Shown here one piece after another: positions 5,332 to 24,066 of a stretch of 64,000 nucleotides of DNA (positions are counted from its first letter, which is position 1; every line of letters begins with the position of its first letter). The stretch comes from an uncultured Candidatus Saccharibacteria bacterium (lineage in GTDB: Bacteria > Patescibacteriota > Minisyncoccia > UBA6257), in NCBI GenBank assembly GCA_964479005.1, contig CAYZJA010000001.1, positions 192,001-256,000 on the forward strand. Direction: 5' to 3'. Below the pieces are notes generated by a model. That model had not been told where the DNA came from. It saw only the letters and a list, made by a program, of their open reading frames with translations, and did not search any database. The position numbers and the translations under genes were made by a program.

Positions 5332-5859
5332 ATGGATAAAAAGAAAACAGTTAAAAAAACAACATCTGTAAAGAAAGAGACAAAGAAAACGGTGAAGAAA
5401 GAAGCGAAGAGAAAAGTAAAAAAAGAAGTCAAAAAAGCTGTAACAAAAAAGGAAGTCAAGAAGGAAATCAAGAAAAAGTATATTGAAGCTGTTGGTAGAA
5501 GAAAAGAATCTGTAGCTCGTGTAAGGCTTATCAAAGACAAGCCAGGTTTTATTATTAATGAAAAAACAATGGAAGAATATTTTTCTTTGCGGGATTATCA
5601 CAAAAAGATATTAGATCCTTTCAAAACAACTAATTTAGAAAATAGTTTTTTTGTTTCAATAAAAGTAAAAGGAGGTGGAATTACCGGTCAAGCTGAAGCT
5701 ATTAGATTAGGAATTAGCCGTTGTTTAATAAAAATTGATAAGAAATTAAAACCAGCATTAAGAAAAGCGGGATTTTTGACACGTGATGCTCGTATTGTAG
5801 AAAGAAAGAAATATGGTTTGAAAAAGGCTAGAAAGGCTGCACAGTGGTCAAAAAGATAA
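5332..5859 (+). CDS. rpsI: 30S ribosomal protein S9 with a lysine-rich N-terminal extension
   Basis: C-terminal 130 aa matches S9 (GRRKESVARVRL...GGGITGQAEAIRLGISRCL...RDARIVERKKYGLKKARKAAQWSKR); N-terminal 45 aa are VKKE-type repeats. Confidence 0.9.
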   Translation: MDKKKTVKKTTSVKKETKKTVKKEAKRKVKKEVKKAVTKKEVKKEIKKKYIEAVGRRKESVARVRLIKDKPGFIINEKTMEEYFSLRDYHKKILDPFKTTNLENSFFVSIKVKGGGITGQAEAIRLGISRCLIKIDKKLKPALRKAGFLTRDARIVERKKYGLKKARKAAQWSKR

Positions 5860-5895
5860 ATTAACTCTTTACCTTTCTTATTAATTCTTATTAAA

Positions 5896-5925
5896 AAGCA
5901 TCTCTCAATAAGGTGCTTTGTTTCT
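5896..5925 (+). terminator. intrinsic terminator of the ribosomal operon
   Basis: AAGCATC-tctcaataa-GGTGCTT stem (one G-U pair) followed by a TGTTTCTT run. Confidence 0.55.
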
Positions 5926-5953
5926 TGACAAGATGAGATATATTTGTTATATT
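5925..5953 (+). promoter_or_regulatory. sigma70-like promoter (TTGACA-17-TATATT) at the left edge of the inserted island
   Basis: TTGACA at 5925-5930, 17-nt spacer, TATATT at 5948-5953. Confidence 0.55.
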
Positions 5954-6088
5954 AAATACAATAGAACAGTTACTGATATAACCATCGGAAGGTAATAAAA
6001 TTAAATAAATCTTATTTAAAGAAAAACGGGTTTCTACAATTCAAGAAAGTGAGTTAAATGTGAATAATTCTCCTAATCGGGTATAATT

Positions 6089-6316
6089 ATGAATAACAAA
6101 CCCATCATAACTAAGGAGAAAGCACAAAAACTTTCTAAGCTTTTCGATAATCCTACTAATTTTAAACAGGCTTGTATTAAGGTTTTATTAGAAGTACCTG
6201 ATGAAAAACTGGATTTTTACAAAGGGAACTTGACTTTTTCAAAAAATGGTGGTACAATTTTGACGAAAATAGAACAATTTTGCGAACAGAAACAATTTAA
6301 GAGTTTTAAGAATTAA
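6089..6316 (+). CDS. small hypothetical protein, paralogue 1 (75 aa)
   Basis: MNNKPIITKEKAQKLSKLFDNPTNFKQACIKVLLEVPDEKLDFYKGNLTFSKNGG...; about 70% identical to the next ORF; no SD; ATG abuts a TATAAT box. Confidence 0.5.
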   Translation: MNNKPIITKEKAQKLSKLFDNPTNFKQACIKVLLEVPDEKLDFYKGNLTFSKNGGTILTKIEQFCEQKQFKSFKN

Positions 6317-6317
6317 A

Positions 6318-6428
6318 CAATTGAATCATACAATTTAATTAGTTTGCCGAGAAGGTGACGCTAACCGAAGAGGGGCGTCTAGACTATCTCTAAGTTTATT
6401 AGGGGTCGTCTGGACACCCCTTTTTTCA
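6318..6428 (+). repeat. about 110-nt GC-rich structured 3' element, copy 1 of 2 (nested hairpins GGGGCGTC...GACACCCC plus T-run)
   Basis: Near-identical copy at 6662-6772; ends in CCCCTTTTTT (terminator-like). Confidence 0.6.
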
Positions 6429-6653
6429 ATGAATAACAAATTTATTATAAACAAAAGAAAATATCAGGAACTTTCTAAACTCTTTGATAATCCTACTAAT
6501 TTTAAGGAAGCTTGTATAAAACTTCTGTTAGAAATACCAGATAAAAAATTAGATTTTTACAAAGGGAACTTGACTTTTTCAAAAAACGGTGGCATGATTC
6601 TAATGAAAATAGAAGAATTATGTGGGTCAAAACACTTTAATTTTAAAGATTGA
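6429..6653 (+). CDS. small hypothetical protein, paralogue 2 (74 aa)
   Basis: MNNKFIINKRKYQELSKLFDNPTNFKEACIKLLLEIPDKKLDFYKGNLTFSKNGG...; ATG lies 2 nt after the T-run of the preceding hairpin. Confidence 0.5.
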   Translation: MNNKFIINKRKYQELSKLFDNPTNFKEACIKLLLEIPDKKLDFYKGNLTFSKNGGMILMKIEELCGSKHFNFKD

Positions 6654-6661
6654 ACCTACAT

Positions 6662-6772
6662 AGATTAAATCATACAATTTAATTAGTTTGCCGAGAAGGT
6701 GACGCTAACCGAAGAGGGGCGTCTGAACTATCTCTAAGTTTATTAGGGGTCGTCTGGACGCCCCTTTTTTTA
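6662..6772 (+). repeat. about 110-nt structured 3' element, copy 2 (stem GGGGCGTC/GACGCCCC plus T7)
   Basis: Direct repeat of 6318-6428 with a perfect outer stem in this copy. Confidence 0.6.
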
Positions 6773-6938
6773 TTGGAAATTATTGGGAAAAAATATCAAC
6801 TGGATATTGAGAAAAAAATAGTACTTTATAGCACCTTGAAAAATAGCACCTTGAAATAAAAATTTAGTGAAATGAGAGATAAGAAAAAGATAAAAGTATA
6901 AGAAAGAAATGTATTAGAAAGAAAGGAGGTGAAACAAA

Positions 6939-8138
6939 ATGACAAAACGCAAATGGACTAAAGAAGATGACGAATATCTTATCCAACATAGTCCGAAACA
7001 ACGGGGAGATTATGGGAAGTTGGCTATCAAACTTGATAGAACAGTAGAAGCAGTGAGGTATAGGTGTAGAAATCTAAAATTGGAAAATGTCCAAAAGAAT
7101 AGTCAGGCACAGAGAACAGATGTTCCATTAGAAGATAGGATTTACGAATTGCTTTCACATTCCAAAAAACATTCTATTGAGGAGCTAAGTAATACATTTG
7201 ATATTTGTGTAGGAAAGGTTAAAGAAGCATTAGGTGTATTACAGAGCAGACGGATTTTAATAGACGCAATAGATGACAAAATTGTTTTAGGGAATACGAT
7301 TAAACCACCAAAAGCCACTCCAATTCCGATGAAGATTTATCATAATAGGTGGATTAAGTTTGGAGTAATCAGTGATACTCATTTGAACTCCAAATATCAA
7401 AGATTGGATATTTTAAACCACGCTTATAAAATCTTTCAGAAAGAAGGAGTGAAGAATGTTCTACACGCTGGGAATATTATAGATGGTTATGGTAGATTAA
7501 ATCAGTTTGATGTATTTAACATCGGGACAGAAGACCAAATCAACTATTGTATTGAAACCTATCCTTGTAAGCAAGGGATTACTACTCACTTCATTACTGC
7601 TGATGATCACGAGGGATGGATTGTAAGGAGAGAACACATTAACATCGGAGAATTACTTGAACTCAAAGCTAACAAAATGGGTAGAAAAGATTTGAAACAT
7701 TTAGGATATATTGAAAGTGATGTGTTAGTTAAAGTTGGAAGCAAACCTACAAGAATTAGAGTATTCCATCCTGGCGGAGGCACAGCATATTCTCTTTCTT
7801 ATAAACCTCAGAAGATTGTTGAGTCCTTACAGGGTGGAGAAAAACCTGATATATTATTAGTCGGACATTTTCATAAACTCGGACATTTTGAATGGCGGAA
7901 TGTGGAAGTGTTATTGACTGGTTGTATAGAAGACCAAACTCCATTTATGAGAAAGAAACATATTGCTGCTCATCTTGGTTTCTATATTGTGAAAGCCCAT
8001 ATTGCTCCTGACGGTTCTGTCAATAGATTCATTCCAGAAAAGATTAGCTATTACGATAGGAAATATTATACCAGCAGAGCTTGGAAGAAAACTCCTACCA
8101 GTTTTGAAAAACCTATTGAATGGTTTTACAAGTGGTAA
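6939..8138 (+). CDS. Myb/SANT-like HTH + winged-helix + calcineurin-like metallophosphoesterase fusion protein
   Basis: N-terminus W-x2-EDDEYL...G-x-W-x2-IA-x2-L-x-RT-x5-R (Myb-like); phosphoesterase motifs GVISDTHLN, HAGNIIDG, LLVGHFHK; strong SD AAGGAGGTG. Confidence 0.55.
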   Translation: MTKRKWTKEDDEYLIQHSPKQRGDYGKLAIKLDRTVEAVRYRCRNLKLENVQKNSQAQRTDVPLEDRIYELLSHSKKHSIEELSNTFDICVGKVKEALGVLQSRRILIDAIDDKIVLGNTIKPPKATPIPMKIYHNRWIKFGVISDTHLNSKYQRLDILNHAYKIFQKEGVKNVLHAGNIIDGYGRLNQFDVFNIGTEDQINYCIETYPCKQGITTHFITADDHEGWIVRREHINIGELLELKANKMGRKDLKHLGYIESDVLVKVGSKPTRIRVFHPGGGTAYSLSYKPQKIVESLQGGEKPDILLVGHFHKLGHFEWRNVEVLLTGCIEDQTPFMRKKHIAAHLGFYIVKAHIAPDGSVNRFIPEKISYYDRKYYTSRAWKKTPTSFEKPIEWFYKW

Positions 8139-8208
8139 GTATTCGCTCTTAAAACAAAACGGGGTGTCTTAAACACAGACACCCCTAATCTCACAGGAGG
8201 TGATTTTG

Positions 8209-8781
8209 ATGAAAATCTTAATCGATTTGGACGGAACAGTATTTGAGACTTACGACACTTTAGAAGAAAAGTTTGTCCAGAAATTTAATCGCAAAATGAA
8301 CTGGCAGGCGCTGAAAAGCGGCAAGAATCATTACTGGCAAACAGATGGGGGTAAGTGGATAGTCAAGCAATTCAAAGACCCAAACTTTTATTACAATTTA
8401 GAAACTTATCCTGATGCTCCCAAAGTGTTAAGGCAACTTGCCCGAAAACATACAATCATATATTGTACCGCGAGGAGGTTTGGATTAGAAAATGCCACCT
8501 CCTATTCGCTTGGTTATAGAAAACTGCCATTCGGGAAGGTATATTGTATTGGCAGGAGACACATTGCGGGGGTTAAAAAGAGAATTGCCTTAGATGAAAA
8601 AATTGACCTTGCTATTGATGATGAATCAAAAGTGGTAGAAAAACTTTCTGAAGTCTGTCAAGTTTTGATATTTACTCAGAATTATAATAAAGGTTGTAAA
8701 TTCGGTAAGAGAGTAAAATCTTGGAAGGAGGTGCGTCATGAATTACAAGCAAAGAAAAGAAATAATAGAACAAGCAAATAA
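8209..8781 (+). CDS. HAD-superfamily 5'(3')-deoxyribonucleotidase-like protein (NT5C family)
   Basis: MKILIDLDGTV (HAD motif I DxDGT) after SD AGGAGG; phage-type nucleotidase architecture. Confidence 0.55.
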   Translation: MKILIDLDGTVFETYDTLEEKFVQKFNRKMNWQALKSGKNHYWQTDGGKWIVKQFKDPNFYYNLETYPDAPKVLRQLARKHTIIYCTARRFGLENATSYSLGYRKLPFGKVYCIGRRHIAGVKKRIALDEKIDLAIDDESKVVEKLSEVCQVLIFTQNYNKGCKFGKRVKSWKEVRHELQAKKRNNRTSK

Positions 8782-9073
8782 AAGACGTCAATCCTTAATG
8801 CTTAATAAAGGAAAAGAATATTCAAAGGGTAATGCCGATATTAATTATAACTTTAAAGAAGTTGCTGATAGATTAGGCACTCGTCTTGCTGGAACTCCTG
8901 AATATACTTGTTTAGTTTATTTATTCAAACAGATTTTATCAATAGAGAAATGGGCAAGAGATGGAAAGTTAAGTTCAGGGGAAACAATTTTTTCAAGATT
9001 AGATGATGCCAGAAACTACATGGATATTTTAGAAAGTCTGATAAGAGAAAAATCCGATGTACAAGGAAGGTGA
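8738..9073 (+). CDS. hypothetical protein (111 aa)
   Basis: ORF with an SD-like GGAGGTG upstream; overlaps the end of the preceding gene. Confidence 0.35.
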   Translation: MNYKQRKEIIEQANKRRQSLMLNKGKEYSKGNADINYNFKEVADRLGTRLAGTPEYTCLVYLFKQILSIEKWARDGKLSSGETIFSRLDDARNYMDILESLIREKSDVQGR

Positions 9074-9220
9074 TGGTATGGAAATTCAGAATGTTTACTG
9101 TTTGATTAAGATTACTTGTGTTGTGATTATTGTAGTAGGATTTTTCGCAATTGTTCAATTACATCTTAAAAGAGAAAAGCAAAGGATACGGGATTATTAT
9201 AAAAGAGGAGGTGATAAGCG

Positions 9221-10303
9221 ATGAAAAAACTACTCGTAGTATTGATTTGTTTGTTTCTATTAGTTCCAACTGTAATTTCTGCACCAGTTGAAAGATTAAG
9301 TGTAGGAGATTTTACTCGTGCAGTAACGGCTCAGATAGTCTGTAATGTTGATGTGTATAGACGGGATTTAACCTGGTATAAGATTGAGGATGGTCAGGTG
9401 ATCCCTGAATTCAAAGATTTAGATGAAGATGACTGGGCATATCAATGGTTAAAGAAAGGCTGGTTCGTGGTATATGGCGAATGGAATACAGAACCTCGCA
9501 AAGGTAAGATAATGGGTTCTGGTGAAGTATTATATTCCTGGTTATTACCTATGGGGATTAACTTAGAAGGTAAACCTGCTGCAACTTATGTAGGCACAAA
9601 TGCCCATGTGGTAGATGTATTTATGTTAGAAGCCAGTAGGGGTTCAAGAGATAAACCATTAGACCTATATGCCGAGAAGGACACGATGAAGACAATGAAT
9701 ATGCTTAGAACGACTTATAAAGAAGAGGCTAAACCAATAGCCCAGTATTACTTTGATATAGATAACAGTTATATCACTGTAAAGACCGAAGCAGACCAAA
9801 GATTTAGAACTAAAGTTAACATCGTATTGTTTGACATAGCATTAGATTTTGCCTTATTGGAAATGGAAAATGTTTTAGGTCTGCCTTATGTGAGTTTTAG
9901 AGGCACTCCTATACAGGTTGGCGAAACGATTAAAATCTGTGGAGCACCATTAGGATTTGCTTTTAGTAGAGACGAAGGACGAGTAAGTCAAGTTCACTTA
10001 AATCTCGGAACTGATGGAGTGGAAGATTATATTGTATGGGATAACCAAGTGCGTATGGATATTGCTGCTGCACCAGGAAGTTCGGGTAGTGCGATATTTG
10101 ATAAAGATGGCTATATGATTGCCCAATTACACGGAATAATGGTTCACAACGGCAACTATATTCAAGGCGGACAATTAGCAGTAGACCAAGAAGATATAAT
10201 TCGTTTTCTGGTGTTAAATGGTTTTTCGTGGATAGTTCAAAATCCTTATGGAATTTGGGCTAACGCACCATATAATACAGTCCGACCAAAAGTAGGAGAA
10301 TAG
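9221..10303 (+). CDS. secreted trypsin-like (S1/HtrA-type) serine peptidase
   Basis: Signal peptide MKKLLVVLICLFLLVPTVISAP; catalytic-triad-like motifs GTNAHVVD (His), DFALLE (Asp), APGSSGSAIF (Ser). Confidence 0.55.
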   Translation: MKKLLVVLICLFLLVPTVISAPVERLSVGDFTRAVTAQIVCNVDVYRRDLTWYKIEDGQVIPEFKDLDEDDWAYQWLKKGWFVVYGEWNTEPRKGKIMGSGEVLYSWLLPMGINLEGKPAATYVGTNAHVVDVFMLEASRGSRDKPLDLYAEKDTMKTMNMLRTTYKEEAKPIAQYYFDIDNSYITVKTEADQRFRTKVNIVLFDIALDFALLEMENVLGLPYVSFRGTPIQVGETIKICGAPLGFAFSRDEGRVSQVHLNLGTDGVEDYIVWDNQVRMDIAAAPGSSGSAIFDKDGYMIAQLHGIMVHNGNYIQGGQLAVDQEDIIRFLVLNGFSWIVQNPYGIWANAPYNTVRPKVGE

Positions 10304-10536
10304 AAATGAGAATTAACGCAGAGGGGGCTTACCTTGATGGTTTCTAAAAGTCCCCCTCCAGCTGTATGGAGGTGATTAAGATGAGGTGGTTATTACTCAC
10401 ATTTGCAATATCTACTATCATATCTTTTGTAGGATTTGTGAATTGTAAAATGGAAAAGGAGAAAGATTGGTTTATTGCGTTATTGGTTTCTGCAACATTA
10501 GTTGTATTGATGTTTGTTGAATTATCTTAGGGGGAG

Positions 10537-10893
10537 GTGATAGAGATGAAGAAACGAAGAAAAAAGCAAAAAGTTAAGAGAGAAGTTTTAAAGAAAATTG
10601 TTAGAGAGAAAAAGGTTTGTTATTTCTGTGGAACTACCGAGAATATAACCGAGCATCACATAATTTTTAAGTGTTTCATTAAAGGCGGAGAGTTACCAAA
10701 TAACAAGAAAGACATTTGTGATAAGTGCCACAAGCAGTTTCATAAATTAGCAAAACCTGTTGTGGATTTACTCTTATCGGTAATTCAAGGATTACAACCG
10801 AAACCAACTCGGAAAATAGGATTCATAAGAACGAACAACAAAGGAGGCGAAAGAAATGAGAAACATAAAAAGATGTCTATTGTTCTATCCTGA
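10537..10893 (+). CDS. HNH-type zinc-finger nuclease-like protein
   Basis: CYFCG...EHHIIF...CDKCHKQFH (C-x2-C...HH...C-x2-C-H). Confidence 0.5.
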   Translation: MIEMKKRRKKQKVKREVLKKIVREKKVCYFCGTTENITEHHIIFKCFIKGGELPNNKKDICDKCHKQFHKLAKPVVDLLLSVIQGLQPKPTRKIGFIRTNNKGGERNEKHKKMSIVLS

Positions 10894-11080
10894 CATACTG
10901 CCAGCTTTACCTTGTTCTTATCCCGATGAGGATAAATGCGGTAGATATATGAAAATCTATCGTAGAAGTAAGAACAGAAAACAGGCAATAGTTCTTTGCT
11001 CACATCGGGTTAAAGAATTAGGTAGAAAGACTTGTGTCAGAGAACAAATGAAACTCAAAGATTCTACAATTTACAGGTAG
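10856..11080 (+). CDS. Cys-rich mini-protein (74 aa), paralogue of 11436-11630
   Basis: Shared motif PC-x-YPD-x2-KCGR and a later C-x-H/C pair. Confidence 0.35.
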   Translation: MRNIKRCLLFYPDILPALPCSYPDEDKCGRYMKIYRRSKNRKQAIVLCSHRVKELGRKTCVREQMKLKDSTIYR

Positions 11081-11113
11081 AATTCTCAAAGCCATTAGAA
11101 GGAGGGAGAAGAA

Positions 11114-11275
11114 ATGAAAACAAGAATAGTAGTAATTGTAGAAAATGAAATATCTTATTCAGTAAATGATTTTACCAGAATGGAACTCAAAGTTTTCAAG
11201 AAAAGGATTAAGGAACAGATAGAAGAGAAATTGTTAGCAGGTTGGAAAGTGATAAAAATAAAAATTAGGAGGTAA
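11114..11275 (+). CDS. small hypothetical protein (53 aa)
   Basis: ATG 8 nt after GGAGGGAG; MKTRIVVIVENEISYSV... Confidence 0.3.
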   Translation: MKTRIVVIVENEISYSVNDFTRMELKVFKKRIKEQIEEKLLAGWKVIKIKIRR

Positions 11276-11435
11276 GAAGTAATGAGAATAACAAGAGAAG
11301 AGCTCGTAAAACAAGGATGGTCATTTATGAGAAGAATAAGCAGAAATTGCGAAATCTGGACAAGAGAAGAAGGAATGATCCTATGGAATAGAGAAACATT
11401 AAAGGTTTATGTGATATGTTAGGAGGTAAAAAGAA

Positions 11436-11630
11436 ATGAGAGATATTTATCGTTGTCCGATTATGTGGAAACTTTTAAAGAAAGCAACTCCTTGTGCGTA
11501 TCCTGATGTTGAAAAATGTGGAAGAGTTGGTGGCTCTTTCCTTTGTAAATATCGGATAGCTGAAATAGGTAAAAAGAATTGCCTTAAAGAAGTTGCTGAG
11601 TTGAAAGATTTTGCTAAAACTCTCAAATAA
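11436..11630 (+). CDS. Cys-rich mini-protein (64 aa)
   Basis: MRDIYRCPIMWKLLKKATPCAYPDVEKCGRVGGSFLCKYRIAEIGKKNCLKE; SD AGGAGGTAA. Confidence 0.35.
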   Translation: MRDIYRCPIMWKLLKKATPCAYPDVEKCGRVGGSFLCKYRIAEIGKKNCLKEVAELKDFAKTLK

Positions 11631-11794
11631 AAGCCAATGGCAAGAGGGCTATATCTCTTGCCACTCTCTCGGAGGGTATTTGTAGATGTTGTTCAAAATC
11701 ACATAAGTCCCATTTTTCTACAAGTATCTTCCGAGAGGGTAATTTCCTCAAACTAATAAAGGTCTTTAAAAAATAATCATAAATAAATATAAAT

Positions 11795-11995
11795 ATGAAA
11801 TTTTGGAAACCTCTCACAAAATACAGATATAGCAAAGAGAGAAATGAAGTTAAATATCATACTGATTTTATGCTTGATAAAGAAGAAGGATTTGAATTAA
11901 GATTTGCGGACTTTATGTTTAAGGAAAAAGTTCCAAAAGATAAGGTTTGGAAATGTCATCTTGAGCTTGCTGTGGAGGAATTTAATGAAAAATAA
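11795..11995 (+). CDS. hypothetical protein (66 aa)
   Basis: ORF only. Confidence 0.25.
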   Translation: MKFWKPLTKYRYSKERNEVKYHTDFMLDKEEGFELRFADFMFKEKVPKDKVWKCHLELAVEEFNEK

Positions 11996-12103
11996 AACAA
12001 CCAAAAAACATTGTGCGTTACATTATAAATCTAAATAAACTTAGTTATATTATTTTAATAGATTAAAACAATTTTTAAATTTTACGAATTAGAATATGTT
12101 CCA

Positions 12104-12556
12104 ATGTTCCAAATATCCGAAGAAAAATTAAAAAAGATAAGAACGGTAGAAATTGCCATCAATAAGAATTTATTTTTAATTTGTATTGTTATTTCAGTAA
12201 TAACAATGAGTATTTTAGGAATAGAATTTTTTAGCCATAGAATCTTTCCTTCTTCTAAAATAAGTTTTTTTTACATTGGGATTTTGTTGATTTATTCTAT
12301 TCATAAGGAAATGTTGAGATGGGTAGGAGCAAAAAGAATAGAAAGGCAAGGTGAGTGGTTTGTTTATTTTTGGATCGGATTTACTATCATCTTATATGTT
12401 ATTAATTTCTCTACAAAAGGTTATTTTAATTATCCTTTAGGAAATACATCATCGGAATCGCTTAATCAAATTGCCGTTACTACTTTAGAAATCTGCGGCA
12501 TTTTTATTGTTTCTAGATTATCTAAGATGGCAAAGATTATTTTGGAAAAAAGATAA
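12104..12556 (+). CDS. hypothetical integral membrane protein (4 predicted TM)
   Basis: Hydrophobic segments throughout. Confidence 0.4.
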   Translation: MFQISEEKLKKIRTVEIAINKNLFLICIVISVITMSILGIEFFSHRIFPSSKISFFYIGILLIYSIHKEMLRWVGAKRIERQGEWFVYFWIGFTIILYVINFSTKGYFNYPLGNTSSESLNQIAVTTLEICGIFIVSRLSKMAKIILEKR

Positions 12557-12624
12557 TAATAATATTCTAAGATAGAACATTTTTTGTATTTTGAAAATTA
12601 AAAAGAGAGGAGGTGGACAATTTG

Positions 12625-13258
12625 ATGAAATTATTAAGAGTTTTTTTTGTCAGCTTTTGGGAAAGGAATTATAACTTTGGTTCCAATCTTAATTATTTTC
12701 TGGTTACTTGGACTTTTTTTGGGAGAAAATATGATAACTATGCGAGATATCATATTTTCTATTTTAAGGGGATTACTTCCTAGGGGGATGGTAGTGCAAG
12801 AGTGGATGATTGGTTTAGGATTGATTTTAACTATTCTGTTTGTCGGTTTAATTTCTTCATCAATTTTCAAAAGAATCTACGCCTGTACAGGTAGATTAAT
12901 AGGTAAATTAATCCAAAAATCATTAACAGGGAAAATAAAAGAACAATATCAGGATCAGGGTATGGTGATATTTGAGTTTAGGGAAGGAATATGGATTCCA
13001 GGAATTATAGTTGGATATATAGCAGGAAGTGAAAAACTTAAGGGTGGAAAATTTTTGAGAATCTTTATTCCCAATGTACCCATACCTTTAACTGGATTTT
13101 CACCTATTTTTGTGCAAGAAAGCAAAGTGATACATATCGATCTTCCGGTTGATGAGGTACTTAATATGTATATTTCAGCTGGGATATTAGGCCCTAAAAG
13201 ACTCCCAGAAATAGTCAGGGAATTAGAGAAAAGAGAAATAATATCAAAAATAGACTAG
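12625..13258 (+). CDS. DUF502-family membrane protein, interrupted by a +1/-1 frame change in a T8 homopolymer (12641-12648)
   Basis: SD AGGAGGTGG is 9 nt upstream of ATG 12625 (frame 0), which reads MKLLRVFF... The long DUF502 body (P-x-P-x-TG motif FIPNVPIPLTGFSPIFV) is in frame +1 from 12647. One extra T would fuse them into MKLLRVFFLSAFGKG..., a typical DUF502 N-terminus. Confidence 0.55.
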
Positions 13259-13276
13259 TAGAGACTTTTAAAGGCG

Positions 13277-13322
13277 GTCTCAATATTTATCTGAGAACCG
13301 CCCTTTTTTTTGGTATAAGAAA
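13277..13322 (+). terminator. intrinsic terminator after the DUF502 gene
   Basis: GGCGGTCTC...GAGAACCGCC stem followed by T8. Confidence 0.6.
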
Positions 13323-13432
13323 ACTCTAATCTATACCAGGGATGGATTGACTAACAAGATTATTAGTGGTATAATTGGATTACTCTACTTAGTACTCTTG
13401 AAAATTTTAAAAAAAGGAGGAAAAAGAAAAAG

Positions 13433-13889: not shown

Positions 13890-15461
13890 ATGGATATTCT
13901 CAAAAACATATACAAAGAATTTATTAAAAGGCGGGTTATTGTTATTATCGGCGCTATTATTTTATTAGTAATTTATTTGTTCTTTTTTAGAAATAACAAA
14001 GAACCAGAATATAACTTAGCAATAGCTGAGAGAGGATCTATAAGAGAAGAGGTTTCAGTTACAGGTAAAATAGAAGCTATTGAAAACATAGATTTGTCTT
14101 TTAGGGCTACAGGAAATGTATCCCAAGTTTTAATTGAAACTGGAAGTGAGGTTAAAAAAGGTCAAGTTTTAGCTAGTTTAGAAAATAATGATTTATGGGC
14201 TCAATTAAGACAAGCTAAAGCTAATTTAGAGGCTGAAAAAGCTAAATTAGATGAATTAGAAAAAGGAACCAGACAAGAAACAATTAATATTAAACAGACA
14301 GAGCTTTCTAAAGCCCAACAAGACTTAGATAATTATTATTTGGATATCTTAGATGTCTTAAATGATTCTTATGCTAAAGCTGAAGAAGCTATCAAAATAA
14401 AAATCAAGGATATCTTTTTAGGAGCAGAAGCGGCAAATAGCTATATATTGAATTTTGATACTTGCGTGTCTAATGAGATATCTTCAGATGTTGGATATTC
14501 ACGATTAGTATCTGAGAGGGAGCTTAAAGAATGGAAAAATCAATTATCCATAATTAACATTAATTCTTCCAAAGAGGAATTAAATTTGGCAATAAAGAAT
14601 GCAAAAGAATATACGGTTTCTTTTAAAGATTTTTTTGGAAAATTAAATAATATTTTATTAGCAGATTGTTCTTATAGTAATCCTAACCTTGATGTTTATA
14701 GAATTGATACAAATACTGGTAGAAATCTTATTATTACCGCGATAACTAATATTAATAATTTAGAACAGAGTGTTGCCTCTCAAAAATTATTAGTTGAAAA
14801 AACACAAAACGAATTAGATCTTTTGTTAGCCGGTTCTACAAAAGAACAAATTATTACCCAACAAGCAAAAGTAGAATATGCTGAAGCTGATATAGCTAAT
14901 CGTTATGCGCTAATTGAAAAAACCATTATTCGCGCCCCAATAGATGGTTTTATAGCCAAAAAAGAAATAAAAAAAGGTGAGGTAGTATTGGCAAATGTTT
15001 CAGTAGTTAGTCTTATGGCAGAAAAAGGATTACAGATTAAAACATATGTTCCTGAGGTTGACGTTTCTAAAGTTAAGGTAGGGGATAGAGTTTTGATAAC
15101 TTTAGACGCTTTTCCTCGAAAAGAATTTTTTGGAGAAATAATACATATTGATTCTGCTGAGACGATTGTTGATGGTGTAGTTTATTATAAAGTAAAAAGT
15201 ACAATTGATACTAAAGATACTAATATTAAATCAGGGATGACTGCTGATATTATTATTATCACCGATTCAAAAGAAGATGCTTTGATTATTCCAAGAAGAG
15301 CTGTGATAGAAAAAGAGGGAAAGAGCATGGTAAGAATTCCTGTTAATGGGGATTTTCAAGAAATTGAAGTTGAAACAGGCTTAGTAGGCTCTGATGGAAA
15401 TATTGAAATCATATCTGGATTAAAAGAAGATGATAAAGTAATTACTTTTATCAAAAAATGA
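13890..15461 (+). CDS. HlyD/MacA-family periplasmic adaptor subunit (efflux)
   Basis: N-terminal TM, long coiled-coil, C-terminal beta-barrel/lipoyl-like segments; upstream of the MacB-like ATPase and permease. Confidence 0.7.
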   Translation: MDILKNIYKEFIKRRVIVIIGAIILLVIYLFFFRNNKEPEYNLAIAERGSIREEVSVTGKIEAIENIDLSFRATGNVSQVLIETGSEVKKGQVLASLENNDLWAQLRQAKANLEAEKAKLDELEKGTRQETINIKQTELSKAQQDLDNYYLDILDVLNDSYAKAEEAIKIKIKDIFLGAEAANSYILNFDTCVSNEISSDVGYSRLVSERELKEWKNQLSIININSSKEELNLAIKNAKEYTVSFKDFFGKLNNILLADCSYSNPNLDVYRIDTNTGRNLIITAITNINNLEQSVASQKLLVEKTQNELDLLLAGSTKEQIITQQAKVEYAEADIANRYALIEKTIIRAPIDGFIAKKEIKKGEVVLANVSVVSLMAEKGLQIKTYVPEVDVSKVKVGDRVLITLDAFPRKEFFGEIIHIDSAETIVDGVVYYKVKSTIDTKDTNIKSGMTADIIIITDSKEDALIIPRRAVIEKEGKSMVRIPVNGDFQEIEVETGLVGSDGNIEIISGLKEDDKVITFIKK

Positions 15462-23109: not shown

Positions 23110-24066
23110 ATGAAAAAGAACCAAAAACCAATCCCCTGTCATTTATCTGATTTTTTAGATTGGTTAGATATTGAAAAAGGTTTATCTTCTAAATCCCAGG
23201 AAAATTATAATAGATTTTTAAAAAAATTTTTAGATTGGTTAAAATCAAATAATTTAGAGGGTTTAAAGCCTCATGAATTAACTACTGATCATGTTTGGAA
23301 ATATCGGGTTTTCCTCTCGCGCCGATATCTTCCTAAAACGAAAACACCCCTTAAAAAAACAACTCAAAATTATTATTTAATAGCTTTAAGGTCCTTTTTG
23401 AATTATTTTGCTGATAGAGATATTTTGTCTTTACCATCTGAAAAGATAAAATTAGCTAAAGATAGAGATGAAAAACAAGTTAGTTTTTTAAATTTAGAGC
23501 AATTAGAGAAATTATTTTCAGCTCCTGACACTTCTAAAAAGCAAGAATTGCGGGACAGAGCTATTTTAGAGGTTTTATTCTCTACTGGTATGAGGATAGC
23601 AGAATTAGTTTCATTAAACCGGGATCAAATTAAAATAAATCCTGGAATAAAAGAATTAGAAGTTGGGATTATTGGCAAAGGGAAAAAACTACGAACTGTT
23701 TATTTCTCTGAAAGAGCTCTATCTTGGTTATCTAAATACTTTAAAACCCGAAATGATGATGAAAAAGCGTTATTTATCAATTATAGAAGCAGGAAAGGAG
23801 CGCCACGGAGATTAACTCCACGTTCAATTGAAAAAAATATGAAAAAATATGTGATTATGTCAGGGGTTCCAATAACAACTACTCCTCACGCCATGCGCCA
23901 TACTTTTTCGACAGATCTTTTAAATCAAGGCGTGGATTTAAAAATACTCCAGGAATTTCTTGGCCACAAAAGCATTGCCGCTACACAAATTTACGCGCAT
24001 GTTACGAGTAAAAAACTTCGTGAGGTACATCGGAAATTTCACAGTGGCCGTAAATTAAAAACATAA
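23110..24066 (+). CDS. tyrosine site-specific recombinase (XerC/XerD / phage integrase family)
   Basis: N-terminal SAM-like domain; catalytic region HAMRHTFSTDLL...LGHKSIAATQIYAHV (R-H-R-Y signature). Confidence 0.8.
   Translation: MKKNQKPIPCHLSDFLDWLDIEKGLSSKSQENYNRFLKKFLDWLKSNNLEGLKPHELTTDHVWKYRVFLSRRYLPKTKTPLKKTTQNYYLIALRSFLNYFADRDILSLPSEKIKLAKDRDEKQVSFLNLEQLEKLFSAPDTSKKQELRDRAILEVLFSTGMRIAELVSLNRDQIKINPGIKELEVGIIGKGKKLRTVYFSERALSWLSKYFKTRNDDEKALFINYRSRKGAPRRLTPRSIEKNMKKYVIMSGVPITTTPHAMRHTFSTDLLNQGVDLKILQEFLGHKSIAATQIYAHVTSKKLREVHRKFHSGRKLKT

Follow-up and report, generated by a model that had tools for sequence, protein, structure and literature searches.

A probable phage-derived gene module without integration genes in a cargo hotspot downstream of rpsI in a Paceibacterota lineage

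Introduction

That bacterial genomes harbour cryptic prophage remnants and multi-cargo hotspots is textbook knowledge. Defective or cryptic prophages are exemplified by the degraded lambdoid remnants of Escherichia coli K-12, and core-flanked integration hotspots and defence islands are established as a concept of comparative genomics. To our knowledge, very little is known about the phages of the Candidate Phyla Radiation (CPR, Patescibacteria) or about the uptake of foreign DNA by genomes as tiny as theirs. Here we analyse a stretch of 64,000 nucleotides from an uncultured bacterium of this group (assembly GCA_964479005.1, contig CAYZJA010000001.1, positions 192,001 to 256,000; hereafter the window), in which a block of small genes, g01 to g14, lies directly behind the ribosomal protein operon ending in rpsI. 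The block is probably a non-autonomous phage early or nucleotide-metabolism module, present as a genomic island in a hotspot of a host belonging to a Paceibacterota lineage.

Like the K-12 remnants, the island consists of short non-structural phage genes between core genes, is compositionally distinct and intact, is not self-mobile and varies between strains. It differs from them in having neither an integrase or att remnant nor a tRNA target, in its size of only ~6 kb and in its host, a CPR bacterium with a genome probably slightly above 552 kb; in addition, the module appears to have been swapped for a divergent version in a sister lineage, so that simple decay of a single insertion does not describe it. 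Genomic islands and prophages, the latter averaging ~44 kb and of the high-quality, complete type, have been reported from the very small genomes of groundwater Patescibacteria/Paceibacteria (PMC12455944). These share with our locus the phylum-level host group and the horizontally acquired phage DNA, whereas the present module measures 6 kb, has no structural genes and sits in a defined hotspot beside the ribosomal operon. As in other integration hotspots and defence islands, one core-flanked interval here receives strain-specific cargo (a ThsB-type Toll/interleukin-1 receptor (TIR) protein, nucleases, phage genes), but the cargo of the window matches no known defence system. Phage satellites (PICI, P4-like, PLE) are likewise small phage-related islands without structural genes; the island differs from them in being without integrase, replication and helper-hijacking genes. 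As far as our searches show, the hotspot downstream of rpsI has not been described before.

Results

The block is absent from most relatives and occupies a variable site

Upstream of the block lie infA, rpsM, rpsK, rpsD, rpoA, rplQ, rplM and rpsI; downstream follow an 80-aa gene, a 523-aa periplasmic adaptor, an ABC ATPase, a MacB-type permease, ftsW, murG and gltX. The nearest species-level genome is a metagenome-assembled genome classified as 'Candidatus Paceibacterota' (GTDB, L093), with an rpsI identity to the window of 80%. For comparison, we collected the loci of rpsI homologues from the genome collection and those of adaptor (523-aa) homologues from metagenomes. In about 17 relatives, infA-...-rpsI is followed by the adaptor, the ATPase and the permease, and the housekeeping proteins are 60-99% identical to those of the window. 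Between rpsI and the 523-aa gene lie 573-883 bp in L173, L176, L177, L178 and L185-L190, 1.3-2.6 kb in L181, L093, L182, L183, L179 and L174, 3.9 kb in L198, 5.1 kb in L175 and 7.4 kb in L203, against 8.0 kb (8,033 bp) in the window. The synteny comparison proposed by an earlier, sequence-only reading of the window (the first-pass annotation) has a clear outcome: most relatives have 0.6-0.9 kb at this place and none of the block genes, which are absent from all compared loci except L180 and L203. More than 12 syntenic relatives with conserved flanks are without the block.

Other relatives carry unrelated cargo at the site. We found a ThsB-type TIR protein (E 2.8e-23) with a membrane protein and an aspartyl protease in L174 (7612-9086), DUF2779 (Cas4-like) and DUF2130 proteins in L175 (5218-8375), small PD-(D/E)XK / TnsA-like proteins in L198 (370-3725), an XRE helix-turn-helix (HTH) regulator in L183, a Cys-rich protein in L182 and a phosphoribosyltransferase in L093, L179 and L197. 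To judge from this cargo, the interval downstream of rpsI is a hypervariable multi-cargo hotspot.

Both edges of the insertion were mapped. On the left, homology to the empty sites ends just past the rpsI stop codon and terminator (5860-5881) and fades through the -35 box of a sigma-70-like promoter (Table 1), which places the break point at ~5.88-5.93 kb; on the right, it picks up at 13,346. In L185 and L186 the two break points are separated by 30-38 nt only. Compared with the empty site, ~7.4 kb of DNA has been added, from ~5.92 kb to 13,345. The first-pass annotation had placed the end of the block near 12.1 kb, which is right for the phage-like part (~12.02 kb) but not for the indel. The promoter it had read behind the rpsI terminator was recovered as one of the two best-scoring sites of an 8.2-kb scan; the scan gave 38 promoter-like sites against 31 +/- 5 expected from shuffles, without overall enrichment.

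Both junctions are bridged by other assemblies. Contigs at 100% identity cross the left junction (L003, L211), the right junction (L002, L212) or both (L001/L210, L211), and derive from at least five independent samples. The Joint Genome Institute (JGI) metagenome contig Ga0309839_1000001 (551,616 bp) and several shorter contigs from other samples are 100% identical to the window. One difference concerns 276 nt (6382-6657, comprising g02 and parts of a repeat described below), which are missing in the 551-kb JGI contig (L001/L210), whereas L003, L211 and the window have both copies. The gap, which is out of register with the repeat, reflects either true variation in the population or a collapse during assembly.

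Block genes resemble genes of uncultured phages

A complete lack of phage or mobile-element homologues would have spoken against an insertion of this kind, but homologues on phage-like contigs were found for the 399-aa (g03), NT5C (g04), 111-aa (g05), 360-aa (g07) and HNH (g09) proteins. The family of the 399-aa protein has 614 homologues, mostly on 20-100-kb contigs, and is encoded on 315 IMG/VR viral contigs of very different GC content and hosts. In 20 viral loci its neighbours include primase, ribonucleotide reductase, UvsX-like recombinase, endonuclease VII, DNA polymerase, endolysin and tape-measure genes. Among the INPHARED GenBank phages, the 399-aa protein has a single distant match (Halorubrum virus, 31% identity) and the protease none, and neither the protease nor the 111-aa protein, each scanned alone against IMG/VR, had close viral relatives there.

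The closest homologues also preserve part of the gene neighbourhood. P0003 (79% identity to g03) is preceded by an endonuclease VII gene and an endolysin-like peptidoglycan-binding gene and followed by NT5C (39% to g04), HNH (47%) and a g12-like open reading frame (ORF; 47%), which is partly the gene order of the island. P0002 (80% to g03) adjoins a DNA methylase and a replisome-organiser-like gene, and behind it on contig L205 stand a gene 84% identical to g05 and an NT5C gene 47% identical to g04. P0005 (72% to g03) adjoins a DnaB/RecA-like ATPase. Similarity extends to the DNA: phage contig L007, on which P0003 is encoded, is 76% identical to window positions 6840-8139, including 99 nt upstream of the 399-aa gene. 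The HNH protein g09 is 47% identical to one on phage contigs L007-L009. Homologues of the protease g07 occur on 46-49-kb phage-like contigs (L200-L202) with genes for DnaB, HNH, a DNA-polymerase exonuclease subunit, an endolysin and a tail-fibre-like protein. By these comparisons, the block genes appear homologous to, and partly collinear with, genes of phage genomes.

Two observations were made along the way in these families. P0078, a 630-aa member of the 399-aa family, has Hint/intein domains inserted in its metallophosphoesterase; inteins are typical of essential phage genes for replication or nucleotide metabolism. Among the protease homologues, P0163, on L202 (GCA_038871735.1, 48.7 kb, 64% GC), and P0169 are binned as DPANN (Micrarchaeaceae, Nanopusillaceae). 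L202 itself looks viral, its content comprising many small ORFs together with tail-fibre-like and DnaC-like genes; it may be a virus placed in the wrong bin or one that infects DPANN archaea.

Composition and translation signals deviate from the host

The block had been described as visibly richer in GC than its surroundings (38-40% against about 30%). The direction of this difference was confirmed, but its size was not: GC amounts to 33.9% over 5860-12100 and to 35.5% in the core (6939-11630), against 30.4% in the rest and 30.8% in the whole window, and 38-39% is reached by single 500-nt windows only. The core is the highest-GC 4.7-kb stretch within the 64 kb, and the five most deviant 3-kb tetranucleotide windows (z scores of 3.3-3.9) all fall within 7.0-12.0 kb, so that the suggested composition scan does single out the block as the GC and tetranucleotide outlier of the window. 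Mean GC at third codon positions is 0.29 in block genes and 0.21 in host genes. The strong Shine-Dalgarno (SD) sites noted at first pass are equally distinctive, with GGAGG before 10 of the 14 block genes and before 4 of the 58 other ORFs of the window. Both composition and signal usage thus deviate from those of the host. Related phage-like contigs, at 30-33% GC, resemble the host in this respect, so the slightly raised GC of the island belongs to these genes in particular and does not indicate a distant donor.

A similar contrast in initiation signals is seen within phage contigs. On L007 (253-9727) and L009 (105-4228), an SD site precedes 0 of 13 genes upstream of the 399-aa homologue and 8 of 11 genes from that homologue onward, and the SD-less genes have an A-rich leader, about AAACAAAAACTAACTAAATAAA ahead of the ATG. 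This looks like two translation-initiation regimes in one phage, SD-less with A-rich leaders and strongly SD-led, of which the former, also found in the host, appears to belong to the late genes and the latter to the module from which the island arose.

A second version of the module in a sister lineage

The same site is occupied by a second version of the island, complete in L203 and truncated by the contig end in L180. In L203 it begins with a 260-aa metallophosphoesterase from another family, followed by NT5C (69% identity to the window), a MazZ-like dGTP_diPhyd_N gene, a Trypsin_2 protease (33%), HNH (39%), an 84-aa Cys-rich protein (35%, to g10), a g11-like gene (44%), a g08-like gene (55%) and a second NT5C gene (41%), and then the 150-aa (85%) and 203-aa (78%) membrane proteins. 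The metallophosphoesterases in first position in the window and L203 could not be aligned with each other, and no relationship was detectable between g05 and the MazZ-like gene that takes the same position in L203.

By synonymous divergence (dS), the indel falls into two parts. Between the window and L203, dS is 0.37 for rpoA, 0.38 for the ABC ATPase and 0.45 for the 523-aa adaptor; within the indel it is 0.46 for the 150-aa gene and 0.48 for the 203-aa gene, against 1.56 for NT5C and, for the protease, >2. These values make the indel composite. Its segment from ~12.02 to 13.31 kb has been inherited vertically since the lineages of the window and L203 split, and its phage-like part from ~5.93 to 12.0 kb appears to have been independently acquired, or replaced through recombination with different phages. 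The first-pass annotation had named relatives with the same genes at the same locus and of similar composition as an observation that would speak against an insertion. A related module does occur at the locus, in L203/L180 only, but it is 33-69% identical and its dS is saturated where host genes are at ~0.4; this pattern points to repeated acquisition or replacement rather than to a conserved host locus and leaves the phage insertion standing. The ratio of non-synonymous to synonymous divergence (dN/dS) is 0.08-0.28 in all comparisons, consistent with functional genes.

The membrane ORFans of the 12.02-13.31-kb segment belong to a family of only 5 clusters in 5.8 billion proteins, which is absent from island-free relatives. 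Separately, a XerC/D-like gene of L180 is followed downstream by another group of small phage-like ORFs (13903-14706, minus strand). One of them is homologous to g11 (53% aa, 72% nt); in the L180/L203 lineage it lies past the island, ~10 kb further downstream, and no counterpart of it was found in the window.

Gene content of the block

All genes of the block lie on the plus strand, from 6089 to 11995, as first described, and they number 14 rather than about 12 (Table 1). By domain content, they form a set typical of phage nucleotide metabolism and early genes. Of the functions first assigned, NT5C, the protease and the metallophosphatase were recovered with Pfam and the HNH protein with PHROG (in Pfam, HNH_5 reaches 24.2 bits, below the cut-off of 27.5), while the Myb-like HTH has weak matches only (E 0.008). 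The tandemly duplicated small genes were likewise recovered as g01 and g02 (78% nt identity, dS ~1.7, dN/dS 0.08) and the Cys-rich mini-proteins as the paralogues g10 and g13 (38% identity).

The first long gene, g03, has a Metallophos_2 match of 29.8 bits (cut-off 27), and its metal-site residues D146, H148, N179, D222-D223-H224-E225, H277, H310 and H312 are invariant across 24 homologues. Its AlphaFold2 (AF2) model has a pLDDT of 81, with the MJ0936 phosphodiesterase, the PolD DP1 exonuclease, Vps29, Mre11 and GpdQ as Foldseek neighbours; at E about 1e-7 and 11-17% sequence identity, these are generic metallophosphoesterase neighbours. A sequence search of the PDB with the 399-aa family returned insignificant matches only. 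The metal-binding motifs of the class (DxH, GD/N..D, GNHE-like, H, GHxH), Pfam and the predicted beta-sandwich fold together support a calcineurin-like metallophosphoesterase, and our best guess is a DNA-associated nuclease or phosphodiesterase.

The SD-led start of g04 is the ATG listed in Table 1; the ORF list has a GTG at 8200. By inspection, the protease g07 has an N-terminal Sec-type signal peptide (MKKLLVVLICLFLLVPTVISAP) and the serine motif GSSGS. For g01, only 4 matching cluster representatives were found among 1.84 billion. A 1166-aa protein, P0185, contains six repeated stretches that match the first 35 residues of g01, and the g01/g02 fold may be a repeat unit from a larger protein family.

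Table 1. Features of the insertion and its junctions, in window coordinates (dG, folding free energy; z, z score of the fold)
Feature	Position	Strand	Evidence or remark
rpsI intrinsic terminator hairpin, host side of left junction	5895..5919	+	Terminator scan; fold dG -9.2, z -4; aligns with terminators of island-free relatives
Left-junction sigma-70-like promoter, TTGACA-17-TATATT, TG before -10	5925..5953	+	Score 11/12
g01, 75-aa near-ORFan, tandem copy 1	6089..6316	+	dN/dS 0.08 vs g02
Promoter-like block inside g01, TTGACT-17-TACAAT with TG extension	6230..6258		10/12 in promoter scan
112-nt structured element, copy 1: two small hairpins, ~27-bp G-U-rich hairpin, U-run	6317..6428	+	dG -44, z -5.95
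g02, 74-aa paralogue of g01, tandem copy 2	6429..6653	+	Missing from L001
112-nt structured element, copy 2	6661..6772	+	dG -41.7, z -4.6
Operator/promoter-like stretch upstream of g03	6821..6875	+	Tandem ATAGCACCTTGAAA at 6828 and 6843
g03, 399 aa, N-terminal HTH/winged-helix domains and metallophosphoesterase	6939..8138	+	Pfam, PHROG, AF2
g04, NT5C-type 5'(3')-deoxyribonucleotidase	8209..8781	+	Pfam NT5C E 1.6e-14; DLDGT (DxDxT) motif by inspection
g05, 111-aa phage protein (phrog_6802)	8738..9073	+	PHROG E 1.6e-7
g06, 55-aa single-pass membrane protein	9057..9224	+	ORF list; hydrophobic stretch by inspection
g07, 360-aa trypsin-like serine protease	9221..10303	+	Trypsin_2 E 2.9e-13; 58 homologues
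g08, ~49-aa membrane mini-protein	10381..10530	+	SD-led ATG 10381; 55% identity to L203/L180
g09, HNH endonuclease	10546..10893	+	PHROG HNH E 2e-7; CxxC...HH...CxxCH by inspection
g10, 74-aa Cys-rich protein	10856..11080	+	Paralogue of g13
g11, 53-aa protein	11114..11275	+	44% identity to L203/L180
g12, 46-aa protein	11282..11422	+	44-47% identity to ORFs on phage contigs L007-L009, L207-L208
g13, 64-aa Cys-rich protein	11436..11630	+	Paralogue of g10
Two-hairpin element after g13	11638..11740	+	Whole-element dG -51.5, z -8
g14, 66-aa ORF, no SD, no homologues; coding status uncertain	11795..11995	+	ORF list, Pfam, PHROG
Resident accessory segment in indel: 150-aa and 203-aa membrane ORFans, then terminator	12021..13311	+	81% nt identity to L180/L203 from 12021
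150-aa gene	12104..12556
203-aa gene	12647..13258
Terminator of the segment	13270..13311		Folded
Right-junction host promoter, TTGACT-17-TATAAT, driving 80-aa gene and MacB-type operon	13347..13375	+	Score 11/12; empty-site homology resumes at 13346

Structured and conserved non-coding elements

Behind each of the tandem genes stands a copy of a 112-nt structured element. The two copies are 95% identical, while g01 and g02 themselves have diverged to saturation as given above. The minus strand of copy 1 folds far worse than the plus strand (dG -30 vs -44); this strand preference indicates that the element works as RNA made from the plus strand, at least as a strong terminator. The promoter-like block inside g01 lies in a 46-nt stretch that is perfectly conserved between g01 and g02 and is retained in L203, although L203 has no ORF there. 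The block is probably a real promoter, and we infer that an RNA of ~160 nt could run from it to the end of the 112-nt element.

Upstream of g03, the operator-like stretch is the same as L203 3496-3550 at 54 of 55 nt, though the genes behind it differ, and the DNA homology to phage contig L007 begins at 6840, inside this stretch. Behind g13, the terminal 9-bp hairpin and 8-bp inverted repeat pointed out at first pass are both present, the former as TGGCAAGAG/CTCTTGCCA at 11638-11663 and the latter as CTCTCGGA/TCCGAGAG at 11666/11730; the 8-bp repeat is the core of a longer stem, which spans 11663-11740, has 24 bp and encloses a 30-nt loop. The element of L203 is arranged alike; its 3' arm is conserved, and a single pair shows a compensatory change from G-C to A-U.

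Each non-coding element was compared as two sequences only, too few for covariation statistics. Rfam, scanned at the gathering and at permissive thresholds, gave nothing for any of these elements; no match in the window exceeds the gathering threshold (best sub-threshold E 0.4). Exact IMG/VR searches gave 0 matches for the core of the 112-nt element and for the tandem operator, and 6 for a 17-mer of the conserved hairpin arm, all of them unrelated chance matches on contigs without island genes (4 in contigs of 50-56% GC).

Discussion

The phage-like insertion proposed at first pass is supported by our analysis, since the two comparisons that the first pass had itself named as able to refute it, synteny and phage homology, both failed to do so. 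No integrase or transposase is found among the block ORFs with Pfam or PHROG, as first noted; the nearest tyrosine recombinase is a XerC/D-type gene (23110-24066), at the same place downstream of gltX as in L180 and L203. The block likewise has no replication initiator, structural or lysis genes, and PHROG and Pfam give no structural or lysis match (capsid, terminase, tail, lysis) anywhere in 5860-13350. With no integrase, structural gene or att repeat, the block is therefore best regarded as a non-autonomous module and not as a prophage.

Several points weigh against this interpretation. At the island ends, the search for direct repeats proposed at first pass turned up no att-type pair: apart from the -35 TTGAC common to both ends, the pairs were AT-rich and due to chance. 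No tRNA target lies near the island either, the sole tRNA of the window being at 52.7 kb, so that mobility genes, a tRNA target and flanking direct repeats, the usual marks of mobility, are all missing. Our look-up for an empty site in the same strain was also negative, which lends no support to recent mobility. The relatives represent only one well-sampled clade, and gain was separated from loss by parsimony and phage homology rather than by a dated phylogeny. The closest phage-like comparison contigs are 5-24-kb fragments in which no capsid or terminase gene was identified, and their viral nature rests on gene content and on the IMG/VR membership of more distant relatives. In the data searched, g01/g02, g06, g10, g13 and g14 have no phage homologue. 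Finally, all function assignments are derived from domain content.

The block might instead be an anti-phage defence or superinfection-exclusion islet that acts by degrading or depleting nucleotides, through NT5C, the metallophosphoesterase and the HNH protein, or by proteolysis. Such a reading is compatible with phage origin and makes a stronger claim on function. It would suit the ThsB-type TIR gene in L174 and the nuclease-type cargo in L175 and L198 at the same hotspot, the intact ORFs with dN/dS well below 1, and the weak similarity of the protease to LmuA and RT-protease profiles. We consider it unlikely, because PADLOC gave no significant system-level match (its best, weak hits, E >= 2.6e-4, concern the protease domain only, and a known defence system was rejected on the same ground), no sensor/effector architecture is recognisable and the closest homologues are ordinary genes within phage genomes. 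Less likely again is an active small mobile element that depends on a recombinase encoded elsewhere, either a phage satellite or an element mobilised by the host XerC/D or a helper phage. The block does occupy a precise site, a divergent version sits there in the sister lineage, the copy number of the g01/g02 unit varies between assemblies, and the structured elements at 6317-6772 and 11638-11740 could be recombination or packaging sites; but integrase, primase/replicase, capsid-redirecting and packaging genes are all missing, flanking repeats were not found, the island is present in all contigs of the same strain, and the cumulative GC skew is monotonic across the locus, so that it holds no dif/terminus site.

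We regard it as very improbable that the block is ancestral host DNA, lost in most relatives and taken up by phages from CPR hosts. Capture of host metabolic genes by phages is known, and both carrier lineages have the 150-aa and 203-aa genes at host-like divergence, yet the block genes proper are far more diverged between the two carriers than the host background and differ from it in composition and SD usage; moreover, the 399-aa family is widespread in viral contigs of disparate GC and hosts, and at least 12 relatives have no block, with unrelated cargo at the site in others. As for a chimera of phage and host contigs, the source is metagenome-assembled and L001 differs by 276 nt in the tandem-repeat region, but independent samples and assemblers span the junctions at 100% identity, which therefore rules out such an artefact for practical purposes.

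Other described element types were also tried and rejected. An intact or recent prophage fails on the missing integrase/excisionase, att sites and capsid, terminase, tail and lysis genes, and a phage satellite (PICI/P4/PLE) on the lack of a detected integrase, primase/helicase replication module or helper-interference gene. An integron cassette array was considered because plus-strand ORFs precede long imperfect hairpins. The attC sites of integrons are built from R''/R' core sites (RYYYAAC ... GTTRRRY); by inspection, no GTTRRRY/RYYYAAC pair flanks the hairpins at 6317-6428 and 11638-11740, and there is no IntI. An integrative mobile element exploiting Xer (IMEX) was likewise dropped, given the monotonic GC skew and the absence of a dif-like context.

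Under the preferred interpretation of a non-autonomous phage module, the block would have entered, and later been replaced, by recombination with phage DNA instead of through an integrase of its own. The 55-nt ATAGCACCTTGAAA region is a possible left anchor for such recombination, and the two-hairpin element and the 150-aa/203-aa segment are possible right anchors. Three sites would drive rightward transcription, namely the promoter at the junction (5925), that inside g01 (6230) and the operator-like region (~6836), and strong SD sites would ensure efficient translation in a host whose genes are mostly without SD. Among the products, a DNA-binding metallophosphoesterase, a deoxynucleoside monophosphate (dNMP) 5'-nucleotidase and an HNH nuclease would target nucleic acids and nucleotide pools, and the protease would be secreted. 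The most likely roles would be phage-type remodelling of the nucleotide pool, kept as a superinfection-exclusion or regulatory remnant, or salvage functions for a biosynthesis-poor symbiont.

A more speculative combination, which we think doubtful as a whole, would make the site an integrase-free 'landing pad' for repeated swaps of SD-led modules, with tandem units that give ~160-nt RNAs and a phage with two initiation regimes. The swaps may use conserved anchors, namely the 55-nt ATAGCACCTTGAAA region (98% identical between the two islands) and the two-hairpin element, and the ~160-nt RNA of each tandem unit, derived from its 3' untranslated region, may regulate phage or host genes.

Phage-derived hotspot islands are common in bacteria and already reported in this phylum (PMC12455944), so that current views are not overturned. 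The island does link a Paceibacterota host lineage by sequence to uncultured phage contigs (L007, L205 and L207 types), at up to 80-84% aa identity, and the hotspot next to the ribosomal protein operon can be tracked across strains. There is also a sharp contrast between SD-led and SD-less genes among host genes, phage late genes and the module; if the two-regime reading is true, it would offer a new approach to the takeover of translation by phages of CPR bacteria. Mildly unusual features are the missing integration machinery, the module swap behind a conserved 55-nt stretch, the conserved structured RNA elements and the SD dichotomy, which we offer as leads rather than findings.

A minor observation concerns the host gene at the left junction. 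The ribosomal protein S9 encoded by rpsI (5332-5859) has a K/E-rich N-terminal extension of varying length among close relatives, with a total S9 length of 153-196 aa across the window, L093, L174, L175 and L183.

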